64,000 bases of DNA, from assembly GCF_036971445.1 (NCBI RefSeq), contig NC_091471.1, positions 199,454,001 to 199,518,000 of the forward strand, written 5' to 3'. The translations under genes and the position numbers were made by a program. The stretch is from Narcine bancroftii (taxonomy: Eukaryota). The notes beneath the pieces were generated by a model. That model saw only the letters and a list, made by a program, of their open reading frames with translations. It was not told the origin of the DNA and ran no database searches. Positions 2,737-58,182 of this stretch are shown in pieces; positions within the stretch are counted from its first letter, which is position 1; each line of letters opens with the position of its first letter.

Positions 2737-2950
2737 TTTGATAGTATGGGATACTATCACCACTGTATATATTTGCATATATTTACATTTAGCGATATGA
2801 TTGGCTGAGAGCCGTAGCCACACCTACTGGCGGGTCATAAAGGGCTGCTCCTAACCATACCCAGGTCAGTCTGGACTGGTCGACCTCGATGTACTACGCT
2901 CCAGTCTTTTGTTAATAAAAGCCTTGGTTTGAGTCATTCGATGCACTACA
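2737..2950 (+). repeat. 5' LTR of Gypsy element A
   Basis: Direct repeat of 5865-6093, lacking a ~14-nt block near the 3' end. TATA-like CATAAA at ~2837 and AATAAA at 2914. Confidence 0.93.
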
Positions 2951-5864: not shown

Positions 5865-6093
5865 TGTGATAGTATGGGATACTATCACCACTGTATATAT
5901 TTGTATATATTTACATATAGTAGTAGTGATTGGCTGAGAGCCGTAGCCACACCTACTGAGAGGTCATAAAGGGCTGCTCCTAACCAGACCCAGGTCAGTC
6001 TGGACTGGTCGACCTCAATGTACTACGCTCCAGTCTTTTGTTAATAAAAGCCTTGGCTTGAGTCAACATGTCTGAGTCATGCGATGCACTACA
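5865..6093 (+). repeat. 3' LTR of Gypsy element A
   Basis: TG...CA ends, preceded by the PPT and followed by TSD TTCAG. Confidence 0.93.
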
Positions 6094-8584: not shown

Positions 8585-8757
8585 GAATTAGAACCAGAAG
8601 TTGGCAATTTGATCTCTCAAAATTGATCTGCTACTTAAAATCTGATTGTCATCTCAACTCTGCAATCCAATAAACCTGCAATAACATTTCACCACTTTGC
8701 TATCTAAACTTTTATTCCATCTCTGCCCTAAAATATTTAAAAACCCTGTCTTCATTT
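8585..8757 (+). repeat. 173-bp direct repeat, copy 1
   Basis: Identical to 10973-11145 apart from one substitution seen by eye (aaaaaccc vs aaaagccc). Confidence 0.92.
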
Positions 8758-8899
8758 TCCTGTTAAACTGTCTTTTTAACATCAAAGTTAGACATGATTC
8801 TACAGCTTCTCTAACATTTTCTTCCAGATAAGCCCTAATCTATAAGGGGATAAAGTTGCCCTTTGGGACCCTTTAATTCTCTCCCCTTTCATATTAAAT

Positions 8900-10972: not shown

Positions 10973-11145
10973 GAATTAGAACCAGAAGTTGGCAATTTGA
11001 TCTCTCAAAATTGATCTGCTACTTAAAATCTGATTGTCATCTCAACTCTGCAATCCAATAAACCTGCAATAACATTTCACCACTTTGCTATCTAAACTTT
11101 TATTCCATCTCTGCCCTAAAATATTTAAAAGCCCTGTCTTCATTT
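10973..11145 (+). repeat. 173-bp direct repeat, copy 2
   Basis: Matches 8585-8757. Flanked by CAGATG on both sides. Confidence 0.92.
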
Positions 11146-13379
11146 CCCAGATGAGATTTAACAATGCGATATGAGATATGATGGATTCTGGCATGAATTA
11201 TGAGGAAAGTTAACATATCACTAGAAAATGTAGGAATGGAGAGACGAGGTATGCACAAATCCTAAAACATCATAATGGTAAAGTAACATATCTGGGACTT
11301 TAGACCTTGCTCACAAAGTCATGAAACACAAAAGGAAGGAAGGTGATGATTCTCCAACATATCGCACAGATTTGGCTATAACTAGTGCACTGCACTCAGT
11401 GTTGGGCTTTAGGAGGGGAAGAACTGAACTTTGAAAATATTTAACAGAATGGCCTCAGGGATACAAGTATAATTAAATGGAGAATTGGCACTCAGGACAG
11501 GGAGAACTGGAAGTGTTTACAACTGTGATGATTTGAATTAGAAACTTCTTTCCTTTATAGAAATAGGGATCAGTGATAGGTGAGAGGGAAACCCGTTTCA
11601 CACAACATGTAATAATGTTCTAGAATTTACTGCCTTACAAGGTGTTTTTGCTGTCATTCAGAATTTGCATGCATGGAACACCAGACCATGCCACATTGTT
11701 CACAATTCCTGTTCAGTTATCCAAGTGCTTTAATAATTTAAAATATTTTAAGTGTATAATTAATCTTTAATAATATCGAACATTCTTTATGTCAGTAACA
11801 TTAAATTTAGCAGACATCTTTGAAAGCCAGTTAAGTCCAGGAGTACAGATTAGTCAGCTGTCATGCACATTCCTACAGATGGGGCTTATTTCCTGCCAGA
11901 AGGCCTTGCCACACACAAGTCTCCGCTAATGAACTGAAATCATAATTGTGGTCGAGACAGCTCATCATTCCCAAAAAAGTTCATTTCAATAACTTTCAAT
12001 TTGAAAACTGTAAGCTCCAGAAGCAGTTCCAAAGTACTTTGGGGTAAGTCAGACTATTATGCCATTGGAATACTTGAACATCTGATTAACTCAGAGATCC
12101 AAATCACTTCCTAACATGCTTTCAGTGGATTCCTTCCTCTAAACAGACTACACACCCATAAAAGAAAACTGTTTTAATCTACTTTAAAAATTGTTGCATT
12201 AAATATAATAGAATATTGCTATGAAATAAAGTATTCAACATCAAAGGGCCAAAGAACAGACTGAGGACTGAAGAAAAACGGTAGCTCGAAGAGACCTTCC
12301 ACATCACACAATTCACAATAGTGAATGTACCTTCAATATTACATTGGATACCCTAAAACAGGTCTCATGGTCCAACAGCAAGCTAGATACAAAACTGTCC
12401 GAGCTCATTTGGACTGGTGATGTTCAAGACAAGCTTAAAACAAATCCCTGTACCCTTTACTTGTTTGCATCTGCGCAAACTGTAAATTTGAGATGGCTGG
12501 CCAGCATGATCATTGAACATGCAAATATCAAAGTGCACCAAGACATTGGGATTTCAGTGCATTGAAATGGCATTCTCAGGGATATTATGCAATGAATCAG
12601 TAGAGAAGCTTCATCAGTCTTTAACTGGATGATGACATCATGTGATGATACAAAGTAATTCTACAATGATACCTCTCACCAATAAAACATTGGGCTGCAG
12701 TGGTGTCATGCAAGACACTGAAGTTAGAAACTTAAACAATTGTGCCTTCTCTATCTGCTTGAGGGGAAATTGAACCACCTTGGTGAATGATCAGGCAACT
12801 GTTCTGGATGGACTACAATAAAGTCACATTGGACACTAATTGGTGTGAAAAGACATACAATTATTTCATGCTTATTTCTGATGATATGTAGTTTTTTTTT
12901 GTTCTGGCATTTAGGATAGATCAGTTAATTAGAAGTGATTTTCTAACCTCTTATTCCTCATTAGTAATAACTGGTTCTACTTAATCAATGAGATTCATCA
13001 TTAAATAAACTGTTTTCACAGACTTGATGAATAATGAACAAAAAGGAGTAAAAACTGACCTTTCTTTGTTCCATTTGTGAAGTTATGATCACCAAAAACT
13101 TTAAATGTGAATGACTATTGACAGCCTATCAATGAGATCATCAATTTTGATGATTCAAAAACATGCCGTTTAAATAATGAATAGTTTACTAAGGTGGTTG
13201 TAGTTTACTTCTAGTTCTTTTGAGATGCAAGATCAAAAGTCAAGTACATTCTGTAAAGGAGGAAATAGTGAAAACTAAAATGTACTCCAACAGGCTGAGA
13301 TCAGCTGGAAAAATCCAGATTGGAAGGTTTTTCTGTCCCATGAATGAGAAGCTAAGCTACATGAAAGCAAAGCATTTTT

Positions 13380-22433: not shown

Positions 22434-25226
22434 TGCAGGGAACTGGATTCAATGGTAGGGTGTCATGCTGATGGCTGGCCCCACTTCTGCCCCCATCTGC
22501 TCACTTGTAACCCTGGTTTCCTGCCTATACCTAGAACCCCTCTGAAGACTCCTGTGAGACCCTACCCTTAGTTATAAGCTAATAAAAGCATTTGTACTCA
22601 CTCCAATCATGAGAACTTTTATTCAGCTACAAGTTTATTAGCTTATTCCCTAATGATGGAACTGCTACTCAAACCTGGTATGCTACTGATAGACCCTCTG
22701 TCCCCCGACACAACTAAGGATTTCACATACTGGCTAGACTGCTTCCAGGCCTACATGAATGTGACCAGAGAAGTCTTCCACACCGATGAACTCAGGAGGT
22801 CTGCACACGTTTCGAGGGTACGAACGAAAGGTATGCAGTCATCAGGGACTGCACTACATTGAAATCTTGGTACCTGAAGTCACAGAACAAGGTCTTAACA
22901 AGGCACCGACTTACTCTATGTTGCTAGCGGCCAAGAGAGACCATCGATGACTACCTGCTGGATCTGTGGATACTTGTCAAGAAGTGCAGGTATGAAGCAA
23001 CTGCAGGCCATGTTCGTGAGGAAGAACAGATCCGGAAACTCTAGTTGTGGGGGTCCACTCAAGGTACGAGGCAGTGACTACTTGAATTGGGTAAGAAGGA
23101 CCTGGCTAGCCATGATGAACAGGCAAAAAAAAAAAACAAACCTGGAACAGGCCAAGCTAGAGAACGACAACCTCAAAATCAACGAGCTCGTTCACCCAGG
23201 TGACCGCTTCCAATGACCAGCTGTTCCCACTACCCCAGCCCTAATAGCTATTGCCTCCCATGCCAGGGAGTGCTTTTTCTGCACAAAAGCCAGCATCCCC
23301 AATCTTGTTGCCAGGCAACATCTTGTGTTCCAGCTTCGGCAAGAAATGGCATCGGGCAAGGGTTTGTTGCACAAGGGGAAGTCTGCGGCCTGCACAGCTC
23401 CTGGATCTGATTCCAGCCCCAAGCCGTCTGCCCTGAATTCACCCAAAACCACTTGCTGCGCGACTCACCAACAGAAGGTGGCAGTGAGGAAATGGCATGA
23501 AAAGGCTCAGTGGCCATCTTGATGCAACCCAAATTCAAACTCGGTGCCATCATCGTCGGAGGGAGGAGGGCGGCTATCTTGCTGTGCCACGAGGTCGAGG
23601 CCATTTTACCCATGCAGGGCAACCCACGACAGTGGGGCTCACTCGAGTCAGGAGCATGGAGTCTCCAAGGACCTAACCTTGATGGTCTTAGCTCAGGACA
23701 GATCTCACCAGCTCAGCAACTCCATAGTGGCTGTGAAGGTAAATGGACACTCCACTAAATCCCTAAGTGACACGGGCTCAACTGAATGCTTCATAGACTC
23801 ACTGACTGTGCGAAAGCCCAAAACCTCACTTGTAACTCTGACAAGTGTGTGTTCAGGACTAAATGTCTGGCTATCCTTGTCTATATGCTGGAAAATGGCA
23901 TAATTGGCCCCGATCCAGAAAGGATGTGTCCCCTGTTTGAGCTCCCCATTCCCAGCACCACAAAGGCTTTGAGGAGATGCCTGGGGCTTTTCCTCATATT
24001 ACACCCAGTGGATCCCTCAATACACTAATAAGGTTCGCCCTCTCTTAAAATCTACTAACTTCCCCCCTCTCAGCTGAAACCCAAACAGCTTTTAACTACC
24101 TACGGAACCACATTGCGAAAGTCGCTATGCACGCAGTGGACGAGAAAGTACTTTTCCCAAGTGGAAAGCAACACCTCAGACATAGCCCTGGCCGCTACCC
24201 TCAGACAGGCAGGCTGGTTGCATTTTTTTTCCCTGCGAATATTAAAAGGCCACGATCTCCAGAACCCATCTGTGGAAAAGGAGTCTCGAGCCATTGTAGA
24301 AGCCATGAGGCACTGGAGACACTACCTGGCTGGTAGAAGATTTACACTCCTTACTGACCAACACTAGGTCACATTCATATTCAGTAACATCAAGAGGAGC
24401 TCCACCTACAATTATGACATTGCCTCTCAGCCAGGAGCCCTTATGACCCTCCAGATGCCTTAACCAGAGGAAGCTGTGCCTCTGCACACATTGGCCAACC
24501 GTGGTCTATGCATAATGATCCTTGCCATCCAGGGGTCACCCACATGGCTTATTTTGTCAAGACATGCAATCTGCCCTACTCCATGGAGAATGTCAAGGAA
24601 ATGACCAGGTCTTGCCAGGTCTGTGCAGAGGGCAAGCTGCTCTTCTAACACCCCACAAAGCCACACCTGATCAAGTTATCCAGGCCCTTCGAATGGCTCA
24701 GTGTTGATTTTAAGGGACCTCTCCCCTCCACAAATGGGAACACCTTCTTCCTCTCTGTCATTGATGACTACTCCCACTTCCTGTTTGCCATTCTACGTCC
24801 AGACTTGTCCACTTAATCTGTCTTTAAGGCACTAGACTGAATTTTCGCTCTGTTTAGGTATCTCAGCTTTATTCATAGCGATCGAGGCTCAGCCTTTATG
24901 AGTGAAGAGCTACGTTAATACCTGCTGGTAAGGGACATTGCATCCAGCAGGACTATTAGCTACAACCCCCGGGGAAATGGGCAGGTTAAAAATGAGAACA
25001 CCATGGTCTGGAAGGCTGTCAAACTGGCCCTAAAGACAAAAGGCCTTCCAGACTCACGCTGGCAGGAAGTCCTCCCTATGGCGCTCCATTCCATCCAGTC
25101 ACTACTATGTACCGTGACCAATGCTGCCCCTCATGAGCTCCTATTCAATTTTGAGAGAAGGTTGGCATCGGGAACTACACTCCCTATCTGGCTCACCACT
25201 CCTGGTCCAGTCCTTCTCAGGAAGCT
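22434..25226 (+). mobile_element. Ty3/Gypsy element B: 5' LTR plus deleted internal region, 3'-truncated
   Basis: Putative LTR ~22434-22631 ending CTACA. Gag MELLLKP..L.IDP.SP..TKDFTYWLDCFQAY is homologous to element A gag. Protease DTGSTECFID, RNase H (SNTSDIALAATL, WRHYLAGRRFTLLTD) and integrase (VDFKGPLP, GNGQV, VWKAVKLAL). No 3' LTR found, so the LTR start is approximate. Confidence 0.88.
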
Positions 25227-30068: not shown

Positions 30069-33000
30069 CCATTCAACACCCCCCCCATAGACGACAGCCA
30101 TTCAACACCCCCCCCATAGACGACAGCCATTCAACACCCCCCCCATAGACGACAGCCATTCAACACCCCCCCATAGACGACAGCCATTCAACACCCCCCC
30201 ATAGACGACAGCCATTCAACACCCCCCCATAGACGACAGCCATTCAACACCCCCCCCATAGACGACAGCCATTCAACACCCCCCCATAGACGACAGCCAT
30301 TCAACACCCCCCCCATAGACGACAGCCATTCAACACCCCCCCCATAGACGACAGCCATTCAACACCCCCCCCATAGACGACAGCCATTCAACACCCCCCC
30401 CATAGACGACAGCCATTCAACACCCCCCCCATAGACAGCCATTCAACACCCCCCCCATAGACGACAGCCATTCAACACCCCCCCCATAGACGACAGCCAT
30501 TCAACACCCCCCCCATAGACGACAGCCATTCAACACCCCCCCCATAGACGACAGCCATTCAACACCCCCCCCATAGACGACAGCCATTCAACACCCCCCC
30601 ATAGACGACAGCCATTCAACCCCCCCCATAGACGACAGCCATTCAACCCCCCCCCATAGACGACAGCCATTCAACCCCCCCCCATAGACGACAGCCATTC
30701 AACCCCCCCCATAGACTACAGCCATTCAACCCCCCCCCCAAAGACTACAGCCATTCAACCCCCCTCCCATAGACTACAGCCATTCAACCCCCCTCCCATA
30801 GACTACAGCCATTCAACCCCCCCCATAGACTACAGCCATTCAACACCCCCCCATAGACTACAGCCATTCAACCCCCCCCCATAGACTACAGCCATTCAAC
30901 CCCCCCCCCCATAGACTACAGCCATTCAATACCCCCCCATAGACTACAGCCATTCAACACCCCCCCCATAGACTACAGCCATTCAACACCCCCCCCATAG
31001 ACTACAGCCATTCAACACCCCCCCCATAGACTACAGCCATTCAACACCCCCCATGGACTACAGCCATTCAACACCCCCCCCATAGACTACAGCCATTCAA
31101 CACCCCCCCCATAGACTACAGCCATTCAACACCCCCCCCATAGACTACAGCCATTCAACACCCCCCCCATAGACTACAGCCATTCAACACCCCCCCCATA
31201 GACTACAGCCATTCAACACCCCCCCCATAGACTACAGCCATTCAACACCCCCCCCATAGACTACAGCCATTCAACACCCCCCCCATAGACTACAGCCATT
31301 CAACACCCCCCCATAGACTACAGCCATTCAACACCCCCCCCATAGACTACAGCCATTCAACACCCCCCCCATAGACTACAGCCATTCAACCCCCCCCCAT
31401 AGACTACAGCCATTCAACCCCCCCCATAGACTACAGCCATTCAACGCCCCCCATAGACTACAGCCATTCATCGCCCCCCCATAGACTACAGCCATTCAAC
31501 GCCCCCCCATAGACTACAGCCATTCAACGCCCCCCCATAGACTACAGCCATTCAACGCCCCCCCATAGACTACAGCCATTCAACGCCCCCCATAGACTAC
31601 AGCCATTCAACGCCCCCCATAGACTACAGCCATTCAACGCCCCCCATAGACTACAGCCATTCAACGCCCCCCTAGACTACAGCCATTCAACGCCCCCCTA
31701 GACTACAGCCATTCAACGCCCCCCTAGACTACAGCCATTCAACGCCCCCCTAGACTACAGCCATTCAACACCCCCCTAGACTACAGCCATTCAACACCCC
31801 CCTAGACTACAGCCATTCAACCCCCCTAGACTACAGCCATTCAACCCCCCTAGACTACAGCCATTCAACCCCCCTAGACTACAGCCATTCAACCCCCCTA
31901 GACTACAGCCATTCAACACCCCCCCCTAGACTACAGCCATTCAACACCCCCCCCTAGACTACAGCCATTCAACACCCCCCCCTAGACTACAGCCATTCAA
32001 CACCCCCCCCTAGACTACAGCCATTCAACACCCCCCCCATAGACTACAGCCATTCAACACCCCCCCCATAGACTACAGCCATTCAACACCCCCCCCATAG
32101 ACTACAGCCATTCAACACCCCCCCCATAGACTACAGCCATTCAACACCCCCCCCATAGACTACAGCCATTCAACACCCCCCCCATAGACTACAGCCATTC
32201 AACACCCCCCCCATAGACTACAGCCATTCAACACCCCCCCCATAGACTACAGCCATTCAACACCCCCCCCATAGACTACAGCCATTCAACACCCCCCCCC
32301 ATAGACTACAGCCATTCAACACCCCCCCCCCATAGACTACAGCCATTCAACACCCCCCCATAGACTACAGCCATTCAACACCCCCCCCATAGACTACAGC
32401 CATTCAACACCCCCCCATAGACTACAGCCATTCAACACCCCCCCCATAGACTACAGCCATTCAACACCCCCCCCCATAGACTACAGCCATTCAACACCCC
32501 CCCCCATAGACTACAGCCATTCAACACCCCCCCCATAGACTACAGCCATTCAACACCCCCCCCATAGACTACAGCCATTCAACACCCCCCCCATAGACTA
32601 CAGCCATTCAACACCCCCCCCCATAGACTACAGCCATTCAACACCCCCCCCCCATAGACTACAGCCATTCAACACCCCCCCCATAGACTACAGCCATTCA
32701 ACACCCCCCCCATAGACTACAGCCATTCAACACCCCCCCCATAGACTACAGCCATTCAACACCCCCCCATAGACTACAGCCATTCAACACCCCCCCATAG
32801 ACTACAGCCATTCAACACCCCCCCATAGACTACAGCCATTCAACACCCCCCCATAGACTACAGCCATTCAACACCCCCCCATAGACTACAGCCATTCAAC
32901 ACCCCCCCCATAGACTACAGCCATTCAACACCCCCCCCCATAGACTACAGCCATTCAACACCCCCCCCATAGACTACAGCCATTCAACACCCCCCCCATA

Positions 33001-34610
33001 GACTACAGCCATTCAACACCCCCCCCATAGACTACAGCCATTCAACACCCCCCCATAGACTACAGCCATTCAACACCCCCCCCATAGACTACAGCCATTC
33101 AACCCCCCCCATAGACTACAGCCATTCAACCCCCCCCCATAGACTACAGCCATTCAACCCCCCCCCCATAGACTACAGCCATTCAACCCCCCCCCATAGA
33201 CTACAGCCATTCAACCCCCCCCATAGACTACAGCCATTCAACACCCCCCCATAGACTACAGCCATTCAACACCCCCCCATAGACTACAGCCATTCAACAC
33301 CCCCCCCATAGACTACAGCCATTCAACACCCCCCCATAGACTACAGCCATTCAACCCCCCCCATAGACTACAGCCATTCAACCCCCCCCATAGACTACAG
33401 CCATTCAACCCCCCCATAGACTACAGCCATTCAACACCCCCCCCATAGACTACAGCCATTCAACACCCCCCCCCATAGACTACAGCCATTCAACCCCCCC
33501 CCATAGACTACAGCCATTCAACCCCCCCCCATAGACTACAGCCATTCAACCCCCCCCCATAGACTACAGCCATTCAACCCCCCCCCATAGACTACAGCCA
33601 TTCAACCCCCCCCCATAGACTACAGCCATTCAACCCCCCCCCATAGACTACAGCCATTCAACACCCCCCCATAGACTACAGCCATTCAACACCCCCCCCA
33701 TAGACTACAGCCATTCAACACCCCCCCCATAGACTACAGCCATTCAACACCCCCCCATAGACTACAGCCATTCAACACCCCCCCCATAGACTACAGCCAT
33801 TCAACACCCCCCCCATAGACTACAGCCATTCAACACCCCCCCATAGACTACAGCCATTCAACACCCCCCCATAGACTACAGCCATTCAACACCCCCCATG
33901 GACTACAGCCATTCAACACCCCCCCATAGACTACAGCCATTCAACACCCCCCCCATAGACTACAGCCATTCAACACCCCCCCATAGATTACAGCCATTCA
34001 ACCCCCCTAGACTACAGCCATTCAACACCCCTCCATAGACTACAGCCATTCAACACCCCCCCATAGACTACAGCCATTCAACACCCCCCCATAGACTACA
34101 GCCATTCAACACCCCCCCATAGACTACAGCCATTCAACACCCCCCCCATAGACTACAGCCATTCAACACCCCCCCCATAGACTACAGCCATTCAACGCCC
34201 CCCTAGACTACAGCCATTCAACCCCCCCCTAGACTACAGCCATTCAACCCCCCCCCAGACTACAGCCATTCAACCCCCCCCCAGACTACAGCCATTCAAC
34301 CCCCCCCCAGACTACAGCCATTCAACCCCCCCCCAGACTACAGCCATTCAACCCCCCCCCAGACTACAGCCATTCAACCCCCCCTAGACTACAGCCATTC
34401 AACCCCCCCTAGACTACAGCCATTCAACACCCCCCCATAGACTACAGCCATTCAACCCCCCCATAGACTACAGCCATTCAACCCCCCCATAGACTACAGC
34501 CATTCAACACCCCCCCCATAGACTACAGCCATTCAACCCCCCCCCATAGACTACAGCCATTCAACCCCCCCCCATAGACTACAGCCATTCAACCCCCCCC
34601 ATAGACTACA
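30069..34610. repeat. Minisatellite, ~29-30-bp unit CCATTCAACA(C)7-9ATAGAC[T/G]ACAG, roughly 150 copies
   Basis: Directly visible tandem array with blocks of variant units, embedded in CA/TA-rich simple sequence. Confidence 0.98.
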
Positions 34611-35219
34611 CCCATACCACACCCCCCTATACTACAGCCATACCACACCCCCCCTATACTACACCCATACCACACACCCCCATATACTACACACAACACA
34701 CACCCCTATAATACATATAACACCTTTCCAATACATATAACACACACCTATAATACATATATAACACATAACACACAAATACATGTAATACACACACACA
34801 CACACTCAAGACACAACAAGATCATAATTTAACAAATTATTTCCACATTTAGCAAATTAAAGAATCGGTCAAAAGCTGATTTCTCATTTACTGGTTCAAG
34901 ACACTGAATATGTTGTCAATTAATATTTTACATTAGGATATCTATGACGGGTTTCAACAGCAGTTTTTCTTTAAAGATCTTGTCAGTACAGGTGCAACAA
35001 TTCAAAACACTGAAATTGACATATTGTGGAAGTTAATTGAAGAAAGCAGAATTCAATATAACCACCATAATGTGGTCCATTTACCAATTATGAAGGAAAG
35101 TTTTCCCAAAATGTACTTTTACCAGAATTTATCTCCATAAAAAGATTTAAGTGAAATAATTAAAAACAAATTTGTCATGGATACAATCACAACTGTTGGA
35201 ACAATGATATCCTCCAACT

Positions 35220-35512: not shown

Positions 35513-36405
35513 CTGGTCAAGTGGATTATATGGAGAGTGAAACAAATTTAACCTATCAGGACCATGATGAAAGATTTCAGACTCTTATGAAAAATCATTG
35601 ACCCAAGTTTCTGATCTGCTGAGTATTTTCAGAACCTTTGTTTTATACTGTATCATCAAAAAATTAGAACTGATTTAGCAGAGGTGTTTTGCTGAGCCCT
35701 GTTTTGCGGAAATAAGGATACTGAACCTGTGTCAATATACAATATAATTTTGGAGACTGAGGAGGTTTCCAGACATGGTGCAGGATCTGAAGTAAATCCT
35801 GCATCCAGGATAGAATGAGACACAATGTGAGGTTGAGTTTATTTGGCGAAATAATTGGAGCTAGCCAATTCGAAGAGAAGCATACTAATGCAACAATAGT
35901 GCCAGTGGCCTGCCACCAATGGACGGTGAGGAAGAAGCCAATAGGAGATTGACTCCATATATGGAAGTGATGACTCCAGGTACACCATAATCCTTGAAAT
36001 TGTTAGGTCACAATGAAGGATCAAGTACTATCCCAGAAAAACTGGCACCACTTAGTCAGACTACCACACAGGTTTGTTTGACAGAAACAGATGTGGAAAT
36101 ACCAATGAAACATTACCAGCACCACAGAGTGAGGTCACCACAGCTCAGCAACAGGCTCAAGAGACAGAGTGTTAACATCAGTACCAGAAGGACTGTCTGT
36201 TGATCAAAGCACAAGTACTCCCTGACTTACTGTCATGATAATGAATATGTATGAGATGTACCGGAAGTCACGTGGTATGAGAGAGATAAGAGCACAAGCA
36301 GGAGAACAAAGGAAACTGGAAAATAAAGACCCCCGAGAAGTTTACCTGATAAAACTGGTGTTTAATGTTTTATTAACTTCACATTTCAGGCCACAAATGT
36401 GACAT

Positions 36406-36423
36406 TGGCGACGAGGATGGGAT
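36406..36423 (+). promoter_or_regulatory. Primer-binding site complementary to the tRNA-Ser(GCU) 3' end
   Basis: TGGCGACGAGGATGGGAT, 1 nt after the LTR. It is the complement of ATCCCATCCTCGTCGCCA, as I recall the vertebrate tRNA-Ser(GCU) 3' end. Confidence 0.88.
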
Positions 36424-36536
36424 ACAAGCTTGAAGAAAATTAAAGACTAAACAAGATTACAGAGGATTACAGAGAACTTCAAGATGATAAGTATTTTCTC
36501 TGTGACTCAGTACTTTTGGGGCTGGAATATTTTCTC

Positions 36537-39500
36537 ATGGCTGGGGCAGACAGTGACTTTCTAACACATACTTCAATTGCTCATTTTGACCCAACGGGTG
36601 ATGCAAGCACTGTAAGTGTGAAGTGGAAGGCATGGCTGGAAGAATTTGAATCCTATGCCGACAGTTGTGGCCTATTTCTAGACACCGGTACCATTGAACA
36701 AAAAGCGCAGAGAAGGGCGTTACTTCTTTTCACTGCTGGACCTGCAGTTCGGGAAACATTTAAGATATTTTTGAATACTGGAAGAAAGGATGAGTACCGG
36801 AAAGCGGTAGATGCATTAAATGCACACTATGTAGTGACACCGAATGCTACATTTCAACGCCATTTGTTTCGGAGAACGAGACAAGAAGATGGCCAGACAA
36901 TTGCTCAGTACGTGATGAGACTACGCCAGCTAGCTGTTGGATGCAATTACATGCCAGCTGATTTGGAAACCAATTATTGGATCAAGTCGTACAGCACTGC
37001 AGATCAGATAAACTCAGAAGACGTCTACTGGAAAGGGAGTGAGTTGGAACTCACCGATGCTTTAACCATTGCTGCTGCATTAGAGGCTGTTGAAGGGCAA
37101 TTTCATACCATGACCCTGAAAGACAACTCAAGCCAGCAAATTAAGAGGCTCACACATCGCCATAACCAGCCAAGATATTCGTCGACACAGGACGTGGAGT
37201 GTTATCGATGTGGAAACCGAGGTCACTTTGGAAAAGACCCATATTGCCCGGCCAAAGGCAAAGTTTGCAGAAAGTGTGGAGGTAAGGACCACTTTGCAAA
37301 GTGCAAAAGCAAGTCCAATGCAGACCAGAAGAGGAAGAGTACAACTTCCAAAGGCAAAGCCTGGGGGAAAGGAAAGTATCCTGGAAAGAAAGATACCATT
37401 CACCAGATAGACGGTGACGATGATGATACCCAGGAGGAACAGAGTTGTTATCAATTTACGTTGAATGAAGTACATCATGAGAAGGTCCCAGTGATCATTG
37501 GTGGAGTGACAGTGCAGGTCATTGTAGACTCAGGCAGCGACAGTAATGTGATTGATCGACATTTATGGGAGAAGTTGAAAAGGAAAAAGATCATCTGTAC
37601 CTCAAAGAAGTGTTCCAAAAACTGTATCCATACACAGCAACCAAGCCATTGCAGACCATTGGATGTTTTACTGCAACTGTTGAAGCTGGAGATAAGTACA
37701 CCGAAGCAGAGTTTATGGTCATAGAAGAGAGGGGAGAACCATTGCTGAGTAGAAGCACAGCGCAAGACCTGGCAATACTTCATATTGGAGCTTGTGTCAA
37801 TTCAGTCATATGAGGATATGAAGCAAGAATTCCCCGCAGTCTTCCAAGGAGTAGGAAAGCTGAAAGGTCGACAATTGAAGCTAGCGGTAGATGAAACGGT
37901 CAAACCCAAGGCACAACCAATGCGCCAAACTCCGTTTGGACTTCGTGGGAAAGTCAAAGCCAAAATTAAAGAATTGATCAAACAAGACATTATTGAACCG
38001 GTGGAACATTCGACACAATGGGTCAGTCCCATAGTGATTGTACCCAAACCAAAGGATGACATAAGACTATGTGTTGACATGAGAATGGCCAATGAAGCTA
38101 TAATTAGAGTACGACACCCTATACAAACAGTGGAGGAAATACTTCAAGAACTAACTACCAGCAAGGTATTCTCAAAAATTGATCTGAAATGGGGCTATCT
38201 TCAATTAGAGTTGAATCCAGGTTCCCGAGATGTGACAACATTTGTGACTCACAGTGGATTGTATCGTTACAAGAGACTATCATTTGGAATTAATGCAGCT
38301 TCGGAGATCTACCAGTATGAAATCCATCGAGTGATTCAAGGGATTCCTGGAGTTGCCAACATTTCTGATGACATCGTTGTCATGCTCTTCCTTTGTTGGT
38401 GCATGGACTAACGGTTGAGGCGTGTACTATCTAGCCTACAGAGGCAGGCCTTACCGTGAATGGAAACAAGTGCCAGTTTGGTGTGTCAGAAATGAACTTC
38501 ATGGGACACAGACTTACACGGGAAGGACTAAACCCTGCAGAGGCCAAGGTGAAAGCTATTGCAGAGGCACGTGCACCTCAGAACGCAACAGAGGTGAGGA
38601 GTTTCCTGGGATTGGTCAATTTTTGTGCAAAGTTCATTCCTAATTTTGCTACAGTGGCAGAACCACTAAGGAAACTAACCAGGAAAGGTATACCATTTCA
38701 TTTTGGATCTGAGCAGAAGAAAGCGTTCACAGCGCTGAAGCAAAACCTGACAGATGCAAAAACTCTTGGATATTACGATCCGGCGGCATCAACCAAAGTC
38801 ATAGCGGATGCCAGCCCGGTTGGTTTAGGAGCCGTGTTGGTCCAGATGCATGACGGAGGACCAAGAATCATTGCCTATGCCAGCAGATCGTTATCAGATG
38901 TGGAAAGAAGATACTCTCAGACAGAGAAAGAAGCACTCGGACTTGTATGGGCCTGTGAGAGGTTCCATGCATATTTATACGGCATTGAATTTGAACTCAT
39001 CACAGATCATAAGCCATTAGAGGTGATCTATGCACCTAGATCCAAACCATGTGCCAGAATAGAGAGATGGGTACTCAGACTACAACCCTACAAATATAAA
39101 GTAATCCACATTGCAGGGAAAGCAAACATTGCTGATCCGCTGTCCAGATTGGTGAAGGATGGATGTCCACATTCCAAGTCAGAATTGGGAACAGAAACAG
39201 AGAGCTTTGTACGCTTCGTAGCTATTCAGGCGACACCGAAAGCTGTGACTACGAAGGAAGTCGAGAAAGAATCCGAACATGATCCAAAATTCATGGAAGT
39301 AAGAGAATGCATACAGAGTGGACAATGGGACAAGTGTACTCACAAGGCTTACATTCCCATTAGAGACGAACTTTGTTGCATCGGACAGTGTGTATTAAGA
39401 GGTTGCAGATTGGTGATACCGCAAAGATTGAGACCGAAGATTGTATCCTTAGCGCATGAAGGACACCTAGGCATTGTTGGTACCAAGCAAAACCTCAGAA

Positions 39501-40600
39501 CCAAGGTATGGTGGCCAGGTTGTGATAAAGATGCAGAGAAATTTGTTAAAACTTGTCACGGATGTCAAATCACAAGTAGGAGTAATCCGCCAGAACCGAT
39601 CCGGAGTACGCAACTCCCGACAGGACCATGGATCGACGTAGCTGTTGATTTTCTTGGACCTTTACCGACGGGTGAATCAATTATGGTAGTGATAGATTAC
39701 TACAGCAGATACTATGAGTACGTGGTGTTGAAGTCCACAACCACTGAAAAAACAATACAAGCGTTAGCAGAGATATTCGCAAGATATGGATTACCTGTTA
39801 CATTATACTCTGACAATGGTCCACAATTCATTTCAGAGACATTTGCGGAATACATGTGGACCACAGGTATCCACCATCATAAAGTAACTCCGAAATGGCC
39901 GCAAGCCAATGGAGAAGTAGAGAGACAAAATCAGTCCATTGAAAAACGATTGAGGATTGCACACGCAGAAGGACAAAATTGGCGAGAAGCATTGCCATCC
40001 TATGTGGCTGTCTATCAAGCAACGCCTCATGCAACCACTGGAAAAAGTCCTGCAGAAGCATTTTTTGGGAGAAAAATCCGCACAAAAATGCCAGAAATAA
40101 AGGAAATCCGAGACGACCAGGAGATGATGGACCACGATGCTGAAAAGAAAGGTGCAGCAAAACTGTACACAGATTCGAAACGTGGAGCCAAGTACTCAGA
40201 CATCATGCCAGGAGATAATATTCTAGTGAGGCATGAAACTGGTGGTAAGCTAGACACACCTTATTACCAGCAACCCTATACTGTCATATCCAGAAGTGGC
40301 AGTATGGTGACAGTCAAGTCTCCAACTGGAGTCCTGTATAAGAGAAATGTATCAGGTGTAAAAAGGTACCAGTCCAGAGATACATCGAGCGAAGAGGTTG
40401 AAAGGCCAATACGAGATGCTGAAACTGAGAGACCTGATGATGTTCCAGAGGCAGTTACCAGCACTCCTGATGAAGTGACTAGAGCACCAGAAACACCCGA
40501 AGCCGTGGCGAGCAGTATTTCCGACGCTAAGAGTGAACAACCGAGAAGCGACGACAATATCGCAGGTAGGCCGATACGAAACCGGAAAGCGCCCAAATGA
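36537..40600 (+). pseudogene. Frameshifted gag-pol of provirus D; the last 714 codons (38456-40600: RT thumb, RNase H, integrase) are open
   Basis: ORF track 36516-37724, 37565-37813, 37785-38411 and 38456-40600. Motifs ADASPVGLGAVL, ITDHKPL, H-X3-H...C-X2-C, VDFLGP, SDNGPQF and NGEVERQN. Confidence 0.92.
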
Positions 40601-41095
40601 TATGAAGACTTTGTGCCATAGTTTTAATAAGAACTTTGGGACAGTATTTAATCTTATATCATAAAGTGCATGTATGAGTGCTGTAGGAAGTAAATTTTAT
40701 GTAGTTGATTTATAGTATTACCATTAGTTACAATGTTTGTAGGTTTCCGAGGGATATTGGTAAGTGAAGGTAAAGTTTATTTCTGATTAAAGGAGGGATG
40801 TCATGATAATGAATATGTATGAGATGTACCGGAAGTTACGTGGTATGAGAGAGAGATAAGAGCACAAGCAGGAGAACAAATGAAACTGGAAAATAAAGAC
40901 CCTGAGAAGTTTACCTGATAAAACTTGTTTAATGTTTTATTAACTTCACATTTCGGGCCACAAATGTGACACTTACGACCTCAATTGGGATGAAAGGATC
41001 AGTAGTATCTTGAAAGGAAGTCTGAATTTTGCTGGCACGCGTGGAGGACTGAAGACTTAAAATTTTTAATTAAGTGCTGTATTGGAGAATCCATA

Positions 41096-46030: not shown

Positions 46031-46762
46031 ACAAATGGAATTATCAAAGCAGTCCTCGTCACTCATGATGTCTGACACTCAATCACACTCCAAGTCTTTG
46101 ATCACAAAGTTCTGGTCCTGGGCACAATCTTCCAGCCCTGGATCATGAGGTCCATGATTCAAACCATAGCCTATCTCCTAATGAGCTCTCAGTCAACTTG
46201 CTCCCACAGCCCTTTATTACTGAAGAGAAGATCCTGATCATATAACACCATGTTCCCACCCCACTATCACCAGATAATCTATGCCTCCCCTTGTCCTGAG
46301 TCTTTCCTAACCCTTCAATCAGCATTTCACACAATTGCTACTTACCGTTTCACGGATGCCGCAGGTCCTGAATGGGCTGAGGAACTTGATCATTCTCTGA
46401 CACAACTATACATATATTATAATTTTTTTCTCCTGCAATTATTGTTTTTCTCATGTGCTGTTAGGAATTATGGGCTTCATATACTTTGGAAACTACAGCA
46501 AATTAGGCTTTCATTGAATCCATACATTGTAGCGGCTACTAAGGTAGAGCTACTAAAGAAATACAAACACACGCCAGAGTAGTCAACTCAAGATTGGCTT
46601 ATTGAAGCCTTACAACTGACTTTTATTCCCTGCCTGACCAGGTTCCACAAAACAAGCTGGGACTTTGTTAAGGGATGGCTGCTGGTCCATGGGACCAGTA
46701 GGTTTAAATTGATACTTATTAACTTCCTGCGTTTTTCAGCAGGGGACCCAGCTGAACAATAT

Positions 46763-47162
46763 GCCGGGCGCGGCCGCCACTGCCGCCGCCGGGTCACGCC
46801 TGGGCGCGCCTGCCGCCGCCGGGTCACGCCTGGGCGCGCCTGGCGCCGCCGGGTCACGCCTGCCGCCGCCGGGTCACGCCTGCCGCCGCCGGGTCACGCC
46901 TGCCGCCGCCGGGTCACGCCTGCCGCCGCCGGGTCACGCCTGCCGCCGCCGGGTCACGCCTGCCGCCGCCGGGTCACGCCTGCCGCCGCCGGGTCACGCC
47001 TGCCGCCGCCGGGTCACGCCTGCCGCCGCCGGGTCACGCCTGCCGCCGCCGGGTCACGCCTGCCGCCGCCGGGTCACGCCGGGCGCCGCCGGGTCACGCC
47101 CGGGCGCCGCCGGGTCACGCCCGGGCGCGGCTGCCGCCGCCGGGTCACGCCCGGGCGCCGCC
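46763..47162. repeat. GC-rich 20-bp minisatellite (TGCCGCCGCCGGGTCACGCC)n
   Basis: Eleven perfect units at 46861-47080, with variant ~30-bp units on both flanks. Four CpGs per unit. Confidence 0.97.
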
Positions 47163-50990: not shown

Positions 50991-53900
50991 TGTAGTGGAA
51001 CACAGTACTGTGGGCAAGTCCTCACTGGGCTCGGCAGGCTGGCCCTCCTTCTGCACCTGTAGCCCCTCCCCAGAAGATCCCCTAATAAAGGCTGAAAGTC
51101 CTAGTCTCTTTCTTCATATCTGTCTTGGACTAAGCCAGCAGCATGTAGAAGCATGTCTGGGTTTACTGATCAATAAAGCCTTCGACTCTTGCTTAGTGTC
51201 TGAGTGGTCATTGATCGCGCCACAATTTATTGATCAGAATTTTAAAGTGCCATGGACGAGGCAATCAGACTGGAGAAGCTGGAGCTTGATCCAAAGGAAC
51301 TAGAGGCCTCTGTAAAATTTGATAGGTCGCTACACTGTTTGAAGGTCTACCTGAGGCACCACAAAATCTCAGCCAATGGTGATCTGTACAACCTGCTCTT
51401 TGCAGATATGGGCCACTGAGCAAACCAAGTAATTCACAAATGCACTGGATATGAAGAGGCAATGGCTCTACTCTGACAGTAGTACGGAACCTCGAGGAAT
51501 ACAATGTATGCACGCTTCCAGCTTGGCTCCTGATGCCAGGATCTGGGTGAGTTGGTGGATGATTTTGTGAGGCCATGCAGGAGCTGGGACAAGACTGCAG
51601 GTGCTGGGATGTGACCACAATAGCCTACTAGGAGAAGCTCATCCATGATGGGCTAGTCACTGGATTCTGCTCCCCTCAAATACGGTAATGACTCAGAGAA
51701 AGGCGATCAGTCCCTACAGAAGTGGTGCAAATGGCCCAAGCGATGGAGACTGTCCAAAAGAATGTGGAGGCCTACTCAGAGGGCCATGTGGCCACCAGGT
51801 GGGGAGAATGGGGGGAACCATCTTGGGATCCCTGACGGTCACTGCCACCTCCAAGCACACGAGGTGCAACTACCGAGGCCAAAGCAAACACCCGCAAAAG
51901 TACTGTCCGGCTCATAGTGTGAACTGCTTAAACTACCGGAGGAAAGGATACTGCCTGTTCTAAGCCCCACTATCAGTGCCGCGTGCGGACCGAGACCTGC
52001 GTCTCCATCTTGGGCCGAACCTCTTCCGCTGTCATTTCCTGTTGCCGAGAACCAAACTTCAAGGGTGCAACAGCATAGAGGGATGTCACATCCGGCTTCA
52101 CTTCCGGACTCCACTGCGTGCGATTCACGGGGGTGGCCATCTTCATGATCTCCCAGGCAGCCACCTTGGTGGTAGCCAACCCAACAAAAGCAGCAGTGAT
52201 TCAGACAATGAGCTGACATTGGCTTCCATCATGCTGGACCTGAGTAGTCCACACCAGCTGTGGCAATCGATGATGGACAGAGGTAAATGGCCACACCACT
52301 GGCTGCCTGTTTAACAAGGGAAGCACCAAGAGCTTCATACACCCGACACGGCCAAACATTATTCCCTGACTGTATCCCCAGCCAAGTGTAAAGTAGTACT
52401 AGCCTCCAAATCCCTGTGGAAATCCATGGGAGATGCACCATGACCCAACAATGGGGAGCACAAAATACAAGAACTTCAGACTGCTGGTGATGCCCCAACC
52501 CTGTGCAACCATCATATTGGGGTTGGATTTCCAGTGCCTGCATAAGGGTGTGCTGATGCAGTTTGATGGGCCCAACCCCCACCCACCCCCCCCCACCCCT
52601 ACCAGTCAGTTCTGGGAGGACCCTCCTCTGAAGAGGCCCAATCACACACCCAAATGCCAGGTCAGGCTCCCAACTTGCCAACTGGCCACCCTTCGGGTCC
52701 CTCCGCTTCCACTGTTCCAAAACCTCACCCTGGATTGCAAAATTGTGGCCACTAGGAGCAGGTGACACAGGCCAGAGGATAAAGAATTCATTAAGATGGA
52801 GGTGGAGCAGCTGCTGTTGGAGGGCATAATAGAACTGAGTAGAAGTGCCTGGAGGGCACAAGTGGTGGTGAAGAGTGGGAAAAAGTACTGAATGGTGATA
52901 GACAACAGTCAGACCATCAACCCATTCACTTCACTGGACACCAACCCTTTGCCTTGCATAGCTGATATGATGAACAAGATCATCAAGTATAGTCTTCTTT
53001 TTTTAATCAATTTTTTATTTTTCACACCATAAATCACATTAACCATGATACACACTTTTTCCTTTTCACACATATACAGTGCCATTTTCTCCCCCCCCCC
53101 CCTCCTCCCATCCCACCCTCCCTACCTCCCCCCTCCCGTCCATTTAAGGTACAAAATCTAGGATACATTAAACCAGTCAGACAATGTTGTCATTCAATAA
53201 AAATACACCAGAAATTCCACTGAGTCCATTCTTTTCATTTCCTTTTCCTTCCGTTAACTTAGGTAGTGATTGTCCCTGGTAGGTTTTCGCTATTGTGTTT
53301 CATGTAAGGCTCCCATATTTGTTTGAATATTTCAATATTATTTCTTAAACTATATGTTATTTTTTCTAATGGAATACATTTATTCATTTCTATATACCAT
53401 TGTTGTATTTTTAAATTATCTTCCAATTTCCAGGTTGACGCAATACATTTTTTGCTATGGCTAGAGCTATCTTAACAAATCTTTTTTGTGCATCCTCCAA
53501 ATCAATTCCAAATTCTTTGTTTTTTGTTACTTAGGAGGAAGATCTCTGGATTCTTTGGTATATTGTTTTCTGTTATTTTATTTAATATCTGATTTAGATC
53601 TTCCCAAAATTTTTCTACTTTCTCACATGTCCAGATTGCATGAATTGTTGTTCCCATTTTTTTTTTTATATAATTACATCGAAAACATCTATCAGATACT
53701 GTTGAATCCCATTTATTTAACTTTTGTGTAATGTATAGCCTGTGTATCCAGTTATATTGTATCATACGTAACCTCGTATTTATTGTATTTCTCATCGTTC
53801 CAGAGCACAACTTCTCCCATGTTTCCTTTTTTATCTTTATATTTAAATCTTGTTCCCATTTTTGTTTAGTTTTACCATTTGTTTCCTCATTCTCCTTTTC

Positions 53901-56900
53901 TTGCAGTTTAATATACATATTTGTTATAAAGCTTTTGATTATCATTGTATCTGTAATCACATATTCAAAGTTACTTCCCTCTGGCAAACTCAAACTGCTT
54001 CCTAATTTATCCTTCAAGTAGGATCTCAATTGGTAATATGCCAGCGCTGTATCTTGAGTTATATTGTATTTATCTTTCATTTGTTCAAAGGATAATAATC
54101 TATTTCCTGAAAAACAATTTTCTATTCTTTTAATCCCTTTTTTCTCCCATTCTCTAAAGGAAAGGTTATCTATTGTAAAAGGGAGTAACTTGTTTTGCGT
54201 CAATATTAGTTTTGGTAATTGATAATTTGTTTTATTTTTTTCTACATGAATCTTCTTCCAAATATTGAGTAGATGATGTAATACTGGAGAACTTCTATGT
54301 TGTACCAATTTTTCATCCCATTTATATAATATGTGTTCAGGTATCTTTTCCCCTATTTTATCTAATTCTAATCTGGTCCAATCTGGCTTTTCCCTTGTTT
54401 GATAAAAATCTGATAGGTATCTTAATTGTGCGGCTCTATAATAATTTTTAAAGTTTGGCAGTTGTAAGCCTCCTTGTTTATACCATTCTGTTAATTTATC
54501 TAGTGCTATCCTCGGTTTCCCCCCTTTCCATAAAAATTTCCTTATTATTTTCTTTAACTCCTTGAAGAATTTCTCTGTCAGTTGTATTGGCAATGCTTGA
54601 AATAGGTATAATATCCTTGGAAAAATGTTCATTTTAATACAGTTTATCCTTCCTATTAGTGTTAGTGGTAAATCTTTCCAATGCTCAAAATGGTCCTGTA
54701 ATTTTTTCATTAGTGGATAATAATTGAGTTTATATAGTTGGCCGAGATTTTTATTTATTTGTACACCTAGGTATCTTATTGCTTGCTTTGCCATCTAAAT
54801 GGTGATTCCTTCTTAAATTTTGAGAAACCCGCATTATTCATAGGTATTGCTTCACTTTTATTTATTCTCCATATTCCTTCAATTTCTTATATAATTCTTT
54901 TATTGATAGTTCTGGTTCTGTTAAGTATACTATAACATCATCCGCAAATAAACTGATTTTATATTCCTTGTCTTTTATTTTTATCCCTTTTATATTATTT
55001 TCTGTTCTTATCAATTCTGCTAGTGGTTCTATAGCTAACGCAAACAATAAAGGTGATAGTGGGCATCCCTGCCATGTTGACCTGCTTAAGTTAAATTGCT
55101 TTGATACAAGTCCATTTACTGTCACTTTCGCTAATGGTCCCTTATATAATGCTTTAATCCAATTAATATACTTCTCCGGTAAACTGAATTTTTGCAATAC
55201 TTTGAACAAATAATTCCATTTTACTCTGTCAAAGGCCTTCTCTGCGTCTAAAGCAACTGCTACTGTAGGCGCTTTATTCCCTTCTACTGCATGAATTAAG
55301 TTAATAAATTTACAAATATTGTCTGTTATGCATCTTTTTTTGATAAATCCAGTTTGGTCTAGATTTACCATTTTCGGTACATACTCTGCTAATCTGTTTG
55401 CTAATAGTTTAGCTATTATCTTATAACCTTTGTTAAGTAAAGATATTGATCTATATGACGCTGGTGTGAGTGGATCTTTCCCTTGCTTTAGTATTACTGT
55501 AATTATTGCTGTTTTACATGAATCTGGTAAGCTTTGTGTTTTATCAATCTGGTTGATTACTTCCAGGAGGGGCGGAATTAATAAGTCTTTAAATGTTTTA
55601 TAGAATTCTATTGGGAATCCATCCTCTCCTGGTGTCTTATTATTTGGTAATTTTTTTATTATCTCTTGTATTTCTACTATTCCAAATGGCTGTTAATTTA
55701 TTTTGTTCCTCTATTTGTAGTTTTGGTAGTTCAATTTTAGTTAGAAATTCATCTATTTTCCCTTCTTTCCCTTCGTTTTCAGTTTGGTATAATTGTTCAT
55801 AGAATTCTCTAAAGTTTTCCTTAATTTCTTTTGGATTATGTAATTTGTTTGACTTTTTTCCTTGATGCCAATACCATTTTCTTAGCTTGTTCTGTCTTAA
55901 GCTGCCATGCTAGGATTTTGTGCATTTTTTCACCTAGTTCATAATATTTCTGTTTTGTCTTCATTATGTTCTTCTCCACCTTATGTTTGTAGTGTTTCAT
56001 ATTTTATTTTTTTTATCCGCCAATTCTCTTCTTTTAGTTGCATCTTCCTTCATTGCTAATTCTTTTTCTATATTTACTATTTCCCTTTCCAACTGCTCTG
56101 TTTCCTGATTATAGTCCTTTTTCATCTTGGTTACATAACTTATTATTTGCCCTCAGTATAGATTCTTCTCTACCATAGACCTCGAATCAGCATACCACCA
56201 AATTCCAATTTGCCCAAAAGACCAGCCATACACAGCATTCTAAGCCAACAGCCGACTACCATTTCCTGCAGGTCCTATAGAACGAGGCACAAGCTATAGT
56301 GGAGAATGTGAGTCACAGGAGGGACTACTTGGCTGGCAGACCATTCACCTTGCTGACAGGCCAGCCGTCACTTTTGTGTTTAACAATAAACAGCAGGGTA
56401 AAATCAAAAATGACAAGATCATGAGGTGGGGAATTGAGCTGTCTACCTACAATTATGAGATCTTGTACTGGCCAGGCAAGCTCAATAAGCCACCAATGCC
56501 CAGTCTGGGGGCACCAGGAATGGGTGCAAGTAGATCACTTCCATGGCCTCTACAATAGCCTCTGACACCCTGGGAGACAAGGCTCTACCATTTGGTGAGG
56601 GCCCATAACTTCCCCTATTCAGTGGAGGAAGTCAGGGAGCTGACTAGCTGGTCTGTGTGGAATGCAAGCCGCAATTGTACAGACCAGAGAGAGCCCAACT
56701 CATCAAGGCCACTTGCCCCTTCGAACGTCTCAGCATGAACTTCAAGGGACCCCTCTAGCCCACGAATCAGAACATCTACTTCCTGAGCAACATAGACGAG
56801 TACTCACGTTTCCCATTCATCATCCCCTGCCCCAACATGACAACATCCATGGTTATTAAAGCACTCCACACAGTATTCACTGTTAGGGTACCCAGTTATG

Positions 56901-58182
56901 TTCATAGTGACCAGGGATCCACCTTCATGAGTGAGGAGTTATGGAAATACTTCCTTTCCAGGGGCATAGCTACGAGCAGAACCATCAGCTACAACCCCCG
57001 TGGGAACGGGCAGGTGGGGAGGGAGAATGGTATTATCTGGAAGGCAGTCCTTTTGGCCCTCAAGTTGGAAGGGATGATTGTATCCCAGTGGCAAGCGGTC
57101 CTTCCAGAAGTGCTCCATGTCACAAGGTCCCTACTTTGCATGGCAACGAATGCAACATCACATGAAAAATTGTTCCCCCTTCCCTAGGAGTTTGGCATCA
57201 GGAACCAAGCTGCTGGTCTGGCTAATGACACCGGAGCCAGTGCTTCTCCAGGAGCATGTTAGAATGCACAAGGCAGACTCACTCATTGAGGAAGTGCACC
57301 TCCTGCATGCGAACTCCCAGTATGGCAAGGTACCCAGACAGATGGAACAATACAGTGTCCATCCTGGACCTGACACGAGCAGGGGTCCCGACACGGGAGG
57401 AGCACCCAATACCCCCAGGCAGTGACCAGTTGGCCCCAGGGATCACCTTGACAATCAAAGTAGAAATTGTTTCATCTTGTATGTGTGAGTTCTTAGACAA
57501 CACATGGATGAAGGAATAGGTTGTTGTACGATGCCCATGAGGCTGCAAACCTCGAACAGATCTCTCATGCAGCAGTCTCTTCATCTGTGAGAGTCCCCTG
57601 TTGGCACCCAAATATAATCAAAGAGGAACTATGGTCCTTGAGACTTTGCTAGTGGCCATTACAGGGATCCCACCTCCATCACAGCCCCGAGTGTCCCCCT
57701 CACCAGTGTTACAAATTCCCTGCCCCCTACAGACCTAGTAAACACAGATATTGTTCACCCCTCCAACACACAGACCATTGAATAAGCTACCGTTCCACTG
57801 GAGCCAACGATACAGCCAGCAGTACTTTGGAGATCTCAGCGCCGAATAAAACCACCAGAGTGGCCAAACCTATGAACTGCAAGACTTGTGCTGATGGACA
57901 TTTCCCCACATCGCCCACTGGACTTCATTCAGAAAAGAAGGGGTGAATATGGTGGAACATGGTACTGCAGGCATGTCATCACTGGGCTGGGTAGGCTAGC
58001 ACGTCTTCTACACCTGTGGCCCCTCCCCATAAGATCCTCAATAAAGGCAGAGAGCCCTAGTCTCCTCCCTCATTCCTGCCTGGACATGAGCCAGCACCAC
58101 GTAGAGGCACGTCTGGGTCTTCTGATCAATAAACCCTTTGAGTCTTGCTTTGTGTGTTCAAGTGGTCATTGATTGCACCACA
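50991..58182 (+). mobile_element. Ty3/Gypsy element C (same lineage as A and B), old and decayed, split by an L1 insertion
   Basis: Diverged LTRs at 50991-51224 and 57948-58182. PPT AAAGAAGGGGTGAA. Gag from ATG 51252 (MDEAIRLEKLELDP), ILGLDFQ, SAWRAQVVV, FSTIDLESAYHQIPI, KIKNDKIMRWGIELSTYNY, SDQGSTFMS and GNGQVGREN. The TSD is degenerate (acaaa/ataag). Confidence 0.92.
52999..56154 (-). mobile_element. 5'-truncated L1/Tx1-clade LINE (ORF2 RT plus C-terminus, 3' UTR, poly-A) nested in Gypsy C
   Basis: ORFs 54862-55371 (LDAEKAFDRV, QGCPLSP, LFADD) and 53502-54794 (YLGV, CFRC...HAIWTC). Poly(T) on the plus strand at ~52998. Imperfect TSD AGTATAG-TCTTCT / AGTATAGATTCTTCT at 52986-52998 and 56155-56169. 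Confidence 0.95.

Follow-up and report, generated by a model that had tools for sequence, protein, structure and literature searches.

A helix between the LTR and the primer-binding site of ray Ty3/Gypsy elements as the likely basis of self-priming

Self-priming retroelements and the copies in the window

Self-priming has already been shown for the fission-yeast element Tf1, and it has been predicted for its relatives and for two plant lineages. The primer-binding site (PBS) of Tf1 and Tf2 (Schizosaccharomyces pombe), Tj1 (S. japonicus) and the Tf1/sushi group is complementary to the element's own LTR, and no tRNA is used. In the published passages cited here, cleavage by the RNase H of Tf1 follows base 11 (PMC7175516), the cDNA ends contain a copy of the retained primer (PMC11042837), and an inner U5-IR-like hairpin is needed (PMC4600332). 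For the plant Tcn1 chromoviruses and the TAR (Houba, Osr-1) Copia elements, self-priming was predicted from LTR–PBS complementarity; these belong to other lineages and kingdoms, and an overlap with the poly(A) signal goes unmentioned in the cited part of that study (PMC6317226). The Saci2/lennie-like Gypsy elements of flatworms, which we compared by description only and treat as a lead, share with the present elements a single Gag-Pol frame and a PBS that varies between families. In the passages cited, their PBS variants were assigned to different tRNAs, and their target duplication is 4 bp, as against 5 bp here (PMC12471100).

We analysed a 64,000-nt stretch of the Narcine bancroftii genome (the window; GCF_036971445.1, NC_091471.1:199,454,001–199,518,000, forward strand). 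It contains three decayed copies, A, B and C, of compact Ty3/Gypsy elements of ~4.3–5 kb with LTRs of 200–240 bp and 5-bp target duplications. The Ty3/Gypsy hallmarks are present (TG...CA LTRs, a polypurine tract and a target-site duplication). The domain order in a single frame is Gag-PR-RT-RNase H-IN, as seen in protein P0001 and four relatives, and fragments of this frame remain in the window copies. No chromodomain was found in these five proteins or among the precomputed domains of 120 matches. Named relatives came from rays (best match Narcine bancroftii), a shark, insects, a spider, a fluke and a snail, whereas Tf1 and Tj1 reside in fission yeasts. A Gag search among longer proteins gave no match, and the viral contigs searched contained no relative. 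By the TGG criterion, as distinct from a comparison with the full tRNA set, the leader has no tRNA-type PBS; the sequence at this position is complementary to the element's own LTR instead. These elements represent a separate, chromodomain-less animal clade with a putative primer that is much longer than that of Tf1 and would end in the poly(A) signal. Within the literature searched, from which most subscription papers, Repbase reports and bioRxiv supplements are missing, neither self-priming nor masking of the poly(A) signal turned up for this clade.

The same genome also holds family Y, a young sister of family A, whose LTR pairs are 98.8–100% identical. Most of the fossil evidence given below comes from family Y rather than from the decayed window copies. 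The window contains a different Gypsy element at 36231–40979, with LTRs of 93% identity and a TGG-type PBS, which we take to be Mag-like by its Gag and PBS motifs. The features of copies A, B and C are collected in Table 1.

Table 1. Features of the three element copies, in window coordinates
Feature	Position	Strand	Remark
Copy C 5' LTR (TG...CA)	50991–51224	+	80.5% identity to its 3' LTR
Copy C TATA-like box in U3	51083–51089	+	Itself a second AATAAA; putative role
Copy C predicted initiator	51114–51119	+	Putative start at A 51116, from spacing
Copy C 5' arm	51166–51177	+	Holds AATAAA 51172–51177; annealing end of the putative self-primer
Copy C predicted cut	51177/51178	+	In family C junction copies, antisense U5 adjoins the arm end
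Copy C loop (rest of R and U5)	51178–51224	+	Inner U5-IR-like hairpin predicted by folding
Copy C PBS	51226–51237	+	1 nt past the LTR; complements the arm; does not begin with TGG
Copy C gag ATG	51252–51254	+	Frame broken further downstream
Copy C polypurine tract	57936–57947	+	
Copy C 3' LTR	57948–58182	+	AATAAA 58128–58133 partnerless, predicted unpaired
Copy A 5' region	2737–2978	+	LTR 2737–2950; arm 2907–2920, AATAAA 2914–2919; PBS 2952–2965; gag ATG 2976
Copy A 3' LTR	5865–6093	+	94% identity to the 5' LTR
Copy B	22574–22655	+	Arm 22574–22586, AATAAA 22581–22586; LTR end 22631; PBS 22634–22646; gag ATG 22653

A stem in fixed register with the LTR end

The two arms form perfect Watson–Crick stems of 12 bp in copy C, 14 bp in copy A and 13 bp in copy B. 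The initial annotation had described a paired segment that includes the whole AATAAA hexamer, a pairing partner that lies outside the LTR and hence follows only the 5' copy, and a gag ATG 21–27 nt past the LTR. All three observations were reproduced. The hexamer lies entirely within each stem; the 3' LTRs of A and C border directly on host DNA and are not followed by a 3' arm (B has no 3' LTR inside the window); and the leaders from LTR end to gag ATG measure 25 nt in A, 21 nt in B and 27 nt in C. The 3' arm begins 1 nt past the LTR-terminal CA in copies A and C and 2 nt past it in window copy B, while most other family B copies have the 1-nt spacer. The isolated helix is modest, with a predicted stability of –8 to –10 kcal/mol, and the folding stability of the 145-nt region as a whole is not unusual (z = –1.44). 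Copy A shows a 5-bp target-site duplication with the flank of its 3' LTR; the 5-mers flanking copy C agree at only three of five positions.

The predicted initiator of copy C lies ~32 nt downstream of the TATA-like box, and its equivalent in family Y was mapped as the start (see below). Two of four truncated inverted pieces of family C (L368 and L371) stop at or near the equivalent place. The AATAAA at the TATA position in the U3 of family C (51083–51089) is a possible rival poly(A) signal in the 3' LTR. In families B and C (window 22581–22622 and 51168–51216), U5 also contains a partial copy of the PBS, to which the arm can pair in both LTRs as a possible alternative fold.

The stem was then scored in genomic copies, taking the best 30 loci of each family (A, B, C and Y) and anchoring at position +2 from the LTR end; loci with no recognisable CA anchor were left unscored (four in A, six in B, eight in C and none in Y). 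At least 11 of 12 pairs were formed at this register in 19 of 26 copies of A, 18 of 24 of B, 16 of 22 of C and all 30 of Y. Shuffled upstream controls reached this level in 0.18% of cases for C and never for A, B or Y. Paired changes were seen on both arms: among 19 scored copies of family C, seven carry the compensated variant TC/GA and four TT/AA; L113 and L116 differ by a compensated pair within one family, and L016 has ATTAAA in its arm with a matching partner.

A metagenome scan extended the comparison to distant relatives. From 70 loci, 41 candidate gag-start regions were obtained, and 17 loci from 16 families were kept. We set aside 12 redundant copies, one decayed stem, one duplicate row apiece for two loci, seven rows with no true gag start or LTR, and loci L132 and L174, which have a gag-type ATG yet no anchored stem. 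In all 16 families, a single nucleotide separates the terminal CA from the PBS and the arm ends in TAAA(A); RCC follows the arm in 15, but the arm sequences are otherwise unrelated. The arm holds AATAAA in four families, ATTAAA in six and neither in the remaining six, which by eye represent ~4 lineages; every ray family has AATAAA or ATTAAA in the arm. In L119 and L121, the canonical hexamer lies in the loop instead of the arm, and L150 has a second hexamer in the loop. A fixed register to the LTR end is a requirement of priming and not of masking. Because six of the 16 distant families keep the stem with no canonical hexamer in it, priming appears to be the conserved job.

In 14 of the 16 distant families (L111–L180), the last 11 nt before the predicted cut start with AG in an initiator-like context, which makes a short, Tf1-like 11-nt primer possible in those families.

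Transcript ends and inverted junction copies

Family Y provided indications of both transcript ends. Three of its copies end in an A-run 16–20 nt past the hexamer. Two of the three run from the LTR start and lack a duplication; the third, the retrocopy L343, starts with an extra G at LTR 141, ends in 15 A residues 16 nt after the hexamer, and is flanked by 13–17-bp duplications. An extra 5' G can be a trace of the cap. We interpret L343 as a capped 68-nt RNA that was copied by a LINE; the cap evidence comes from this one copy. A search for more retrocopies starting at LTR 141 gave three matches, all of them junction copies, which had been selected for their start and were not counted. No A-tailed copy was found for family C.

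These copies place the start of family Y 45 nt upstream of AATAAA, in agreement with the stops of the inverted pieces described below, and show that the hexamer is used even near the cap. For this sister family, they speak for two premises of the initial annotation, namely that transcription does not start downstream of this AATAAA and that this same hexamer directs 3' cleavage. Polyadenylation at 68 nt, as read from L343, implies that proximity to the cap alone is an incomplete block. The source of the L343 RNA could equally be a 5' LTR or an LTR lacking a PBS.

Attention was drawn to a class of inverted junctions by a contig of one assembly, where the PBS is continued by the LTR stretch that precedes the arm, in reverse-complement orientation. 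In family Y, the genome contains 243 exact junctions of this type, as against 1077 normal junctions and none for the reversed-pattern control. On one strand, the junction reads as the front of the LTR ending in AATAAAA, one T, and antisense U5. This is the shape expected of a self-primer joined to minus strong-stop DNA. We read the first 90 of the listed loci, which gave 91 junctions, in family Y LTR coordinates 1–240 (initiator A at 141, AATAAA at 186–191, arm end at 192). Twenty-six of the 91 are palindromes with two U3 ends. Among the 24 palindromes with exact ends, 20 are flanked by a 5-bp duplication with at most one mismatch, perfect in 17, and these duplications indicate that the misproducts arose before integration. 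Palindromic mini-elements of ~433 bp (an LTR plus inverted U3-R) are exemplified by L254, L255 and L259. A junction from the inverted piece into gag is common to L257, L277 and L306, and this misproduct seems to have been amplified again.

The broken ends of the misproducts cluster at two places. The sense U5 piece is truncated in 48 junctions, 43 of them independent and 42 when one fold-back type is set aside. Of these 42, 29 start at LTR 181–203 and seven at 192–194; the predicted cut is at 192/193. The breaks around the cut spread over ~20 nt with no sharp peak. The inverted piece is truncated in 20 junctions (18 independent); eight of these 18 end at 135–143, where the start is predicted (141), and 15 end at 135 or further downstream. 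Against uniform breaks, the binomial P is ~1e-6 for both narrow windows, the widths of which were chosen post hoc. A hairpin found by eye at LTR 127–152, with its loop on the initiator, could itself cause breaks near 135–143. The two arms differ at shared non-CpG variants in seven of 27 two-armed copies, which points to the use of two templates and goes beyond simple snap-back. The primer part held no excess of arm-to-arm differences (28 of 1290 sites, as against 83 of 3410).

Related families gave comparable junctions. In family A, eight of the ten loci read contain inverted junctions, the other two being Y variants. The exact junction pattern gave no match in family C, but 23 matches were obtained when two mismatches were allowed, and the 20 that were read comprised 11 junctions and nine ordinary reversed LTRs. 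Two of the U5 pieces start at the equivalent of 51178–51179, and L368 and L371, two of four truncated inverted pieces, end close to the equivalent of 51116. Among the sequencing runs listed as carrying the element, none was on record as RNA. In four assemblies from one study that we guess to be RNA, the contigs span the family Y element and leave its flank uncovered, their depth is silent on starts and ends, and no loose poly(A) end was seen among the rows listed; we do not use them as evidence. Because 243 genomic copies carry the junction, a contig with an inverted junction in this set is uninformative on particles.

Priming, masking and the competing readings

On this evidence, the helix at the PBS position likely serves to start reverse transcription, with the element's own RNA, once cut after AAUAAA(A), as the primer. 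In the ray families, transcription would likely begin at an initiator ~45–55 nt upstream of the hexamer. The arm of the RNA would fold onto the PBS 1 nt beyond the LTR, and the RNA would be cut just after AAUAAA(A), presumably by the element's own RNase H, by analogy with Tf1. With a start at this distance, the primer would be the capped front fragment of ~52–62 nt, of which only the last 12–14 nt anneal. Minus strong-stop DNA would be made from the PBS to the cut and would then jump via an overlap of ~16–20 nt that ends at the 3' poly(A) site. Plus-strand synthesis would often copy the retained primer to its 5' end and so produce the inverted junction copies.

The cycle proposed here from sequence would work like that of Tf1 as far as the latter is set out in the passages cited (PMC7175516, PMC4600332, PMC5341516, PMC11042837). 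The retention of the primer and its copying by plus-strand synthesis are indicated indirectly, through the 243 junction copies and the inverted pieces that stop at the start site. The ray primer would be several times the 11 nt of Tf1 and would usually end in the bases of the poly(A) signal. Since the elements lack a chromodomain, and since the mapped start of family Y lies 52 nt upstream of the arm end and the primer is hence not the first 11 nt, we do not file them as Tf1/sushi chromoviruses. Integrated misproducts provide a genome-only readout of the start, the cut and primer retention, and the approach is repeatable in other assemblies with a young family.

The polyA hairpin of HIV-1 is built from LTR sequence that is present at both ends. 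Its AAUAAA is part of R, appears at both transcript ends and is occluded by pairing (PMC12789967), as is predicted for the hexamer here; the hairpin works together with U1 binding and U3 enhancers. In the ray elements, by contrast, the partner is the PBS outside the LTR, and the pairing is thus 5'-specific by construction and would double as the primer duplex. As the poly(A) signal makes up the last primer bases in most families, folding would cover the signal in the 5' LTR only. We expressed masking as the predicted cost of opening the hexamer in its 5' and 3' contexts. For window copy C, the cost was 5.9–6.3 kcal/mol in the 5' context versus 0.2 kcal/mol in the 3' context, and for window copy A it was 8.4 versus 0.8–1.0 kcal/mol. 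The 5' cost was more than 2 kcal/mol higher in nine of nine pairs of Y, five of five re-anchored pairs of C, three of four pairs of B and all five distant pairs whose arm holds the hexamer; some of the compared pairs have a decayed 3' hexamer. In round terms, the predicted costs were ~4–8 kcal/mol in the 5' context versus 0–3 kcal/mol in the 3' context. Folding is thus predicted to place the hexamer in a helix in the 5' context only.

Covering the signal may reduce premature polyadenylation in the 5' LTR, a model-based possibility in which we place somewhat less than even confidence. One helix would then act both as the primer duplex and as a 5' anti-termination switch. Folded RNA would escape premature polyadenylation, arrive loaded with its primer and be cut after AAUAAA(A), with the capped 52-nt front as primer; unfolded RNA, or RNA lacking a PBS, would end as a 68-nt polyadenylated stub; and the host genome would keep hundreds of integrated intermediates of the cycle. 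We regard this double role, in which selection in the ray families also acts on hiding AAUAAA from CPSF, as a tentative reading. It agrees with a start upstream of a hexamer that is in use in family Y, with the opening costs given above, with the AATAAA or ATTAAA in the arm of ten of the 16 distant families and all ray families, and with L343, by which a 68-nt LTR transcript can be polyadenylated. However, L343 is equally compatible with a 5' LTR where masking failed, the hexamer-less arms and the loop hexamers of L119 and L121 show no such arrangement (in L119 the hexamer is predicted to be open in both LTRs, 0.1 versus 0.2), and the decayed A copies retain a difference above 2 kcal/mol in only five of 14 pairs. 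The AATAAA of the control element with the TGG-type PBS, the start site of which is unmapped, is unmasked in both LTRs (0.1). The modest stability of the isolated helix also speaks against this reading, and established ways of silencing the retroviral 5' site include closeness to the cap, enhancers in U3, binding of U1 and a weak signal (PMC12789967).

The overlap of hexamer and arm may also be explained by geometry alone. For the first jump to have an overlap, the poly(A) site would have to lie shortly past the cut, and the signal would then come to lie near the arm end. Masking is best seen as a plausible side benefit of the priming helix, predicted to be 5'-specific and not conserved across the clade. 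If real, it would be a simple solution to the problem of 5' LTR polyadenylation. The initial annotation had offered masking as an alternative or additional explanation to self-priming. The additional role stands in this limited form, while the alternative is contradicted by the fixed register, by the junctions that join the arm to antisense U5 and by the hexamer-less distant families.

Priming could also occur in trans, if LTR transcripts that were polyadenylated prematurely, like the short RNA behind L343, were trimmed back as far as the hexamer and used as primers. A capped 68-nt RNA of that type did leave a retrocopy, and the seven two-armed misproducts from two templates would fit, but two templates are also expected of co-packaged genomes. 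On an uncut template, strong-stop synthesis would proceed to the cap (LTR 141), yet the deduced 3' ends cluster at 181–203 with a mode of 192. We consider priming in trans improbable.

The palindromic class, with arms that are identical in several of the 26 full palindromes, could arise with no RNA primer by snap-back of plus-strand DNA at the 14-bp inverted repeat, in which case the inverted junctions would be plain errors at a short inverted repeat and silent on priming. Such errors do not predict U5 pieces that start at the arm end, stops at the cap site or arms from different subfamilies, and they would leave the element primerless; we find this explanation of the junctions unlikely.

That the helix mainly masks the poly(A) signal or tunes translation, with priming by something else, is hardly credible: each of the three window copies does have its hexamer inside the helix and a gag ATG close by, but no TGG-type PBS exists in the leader, the 1-nt spacer after the LTR is fixed, the arm end is joined to antisense U5 in three families, and leader length is highly variable. 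The initial annotation had also suggested that this helix may couple priming and translation initiation. The priming part is supported by the register and the junctions, but we found no evidence for the coupling to translation and rejected it; among relatives, between ~13 and 92 nt separate the 3' arm from the start of gag.

Other repeats were noted in the window. An L1-like LINE fragment with RT-like frames lies on the minus strand within copy C (~53000–55900). A long minisatellite of 26–29-bp units occupies 30077–34617, and a GC-rich tandem array of 10/20-bp units was found at 46720–47159. A 176-bp direct repeat (8585–8760 and 10973–11148; 99% identical, 2388 bp apart) is possibly the young LTR pair of a short element.
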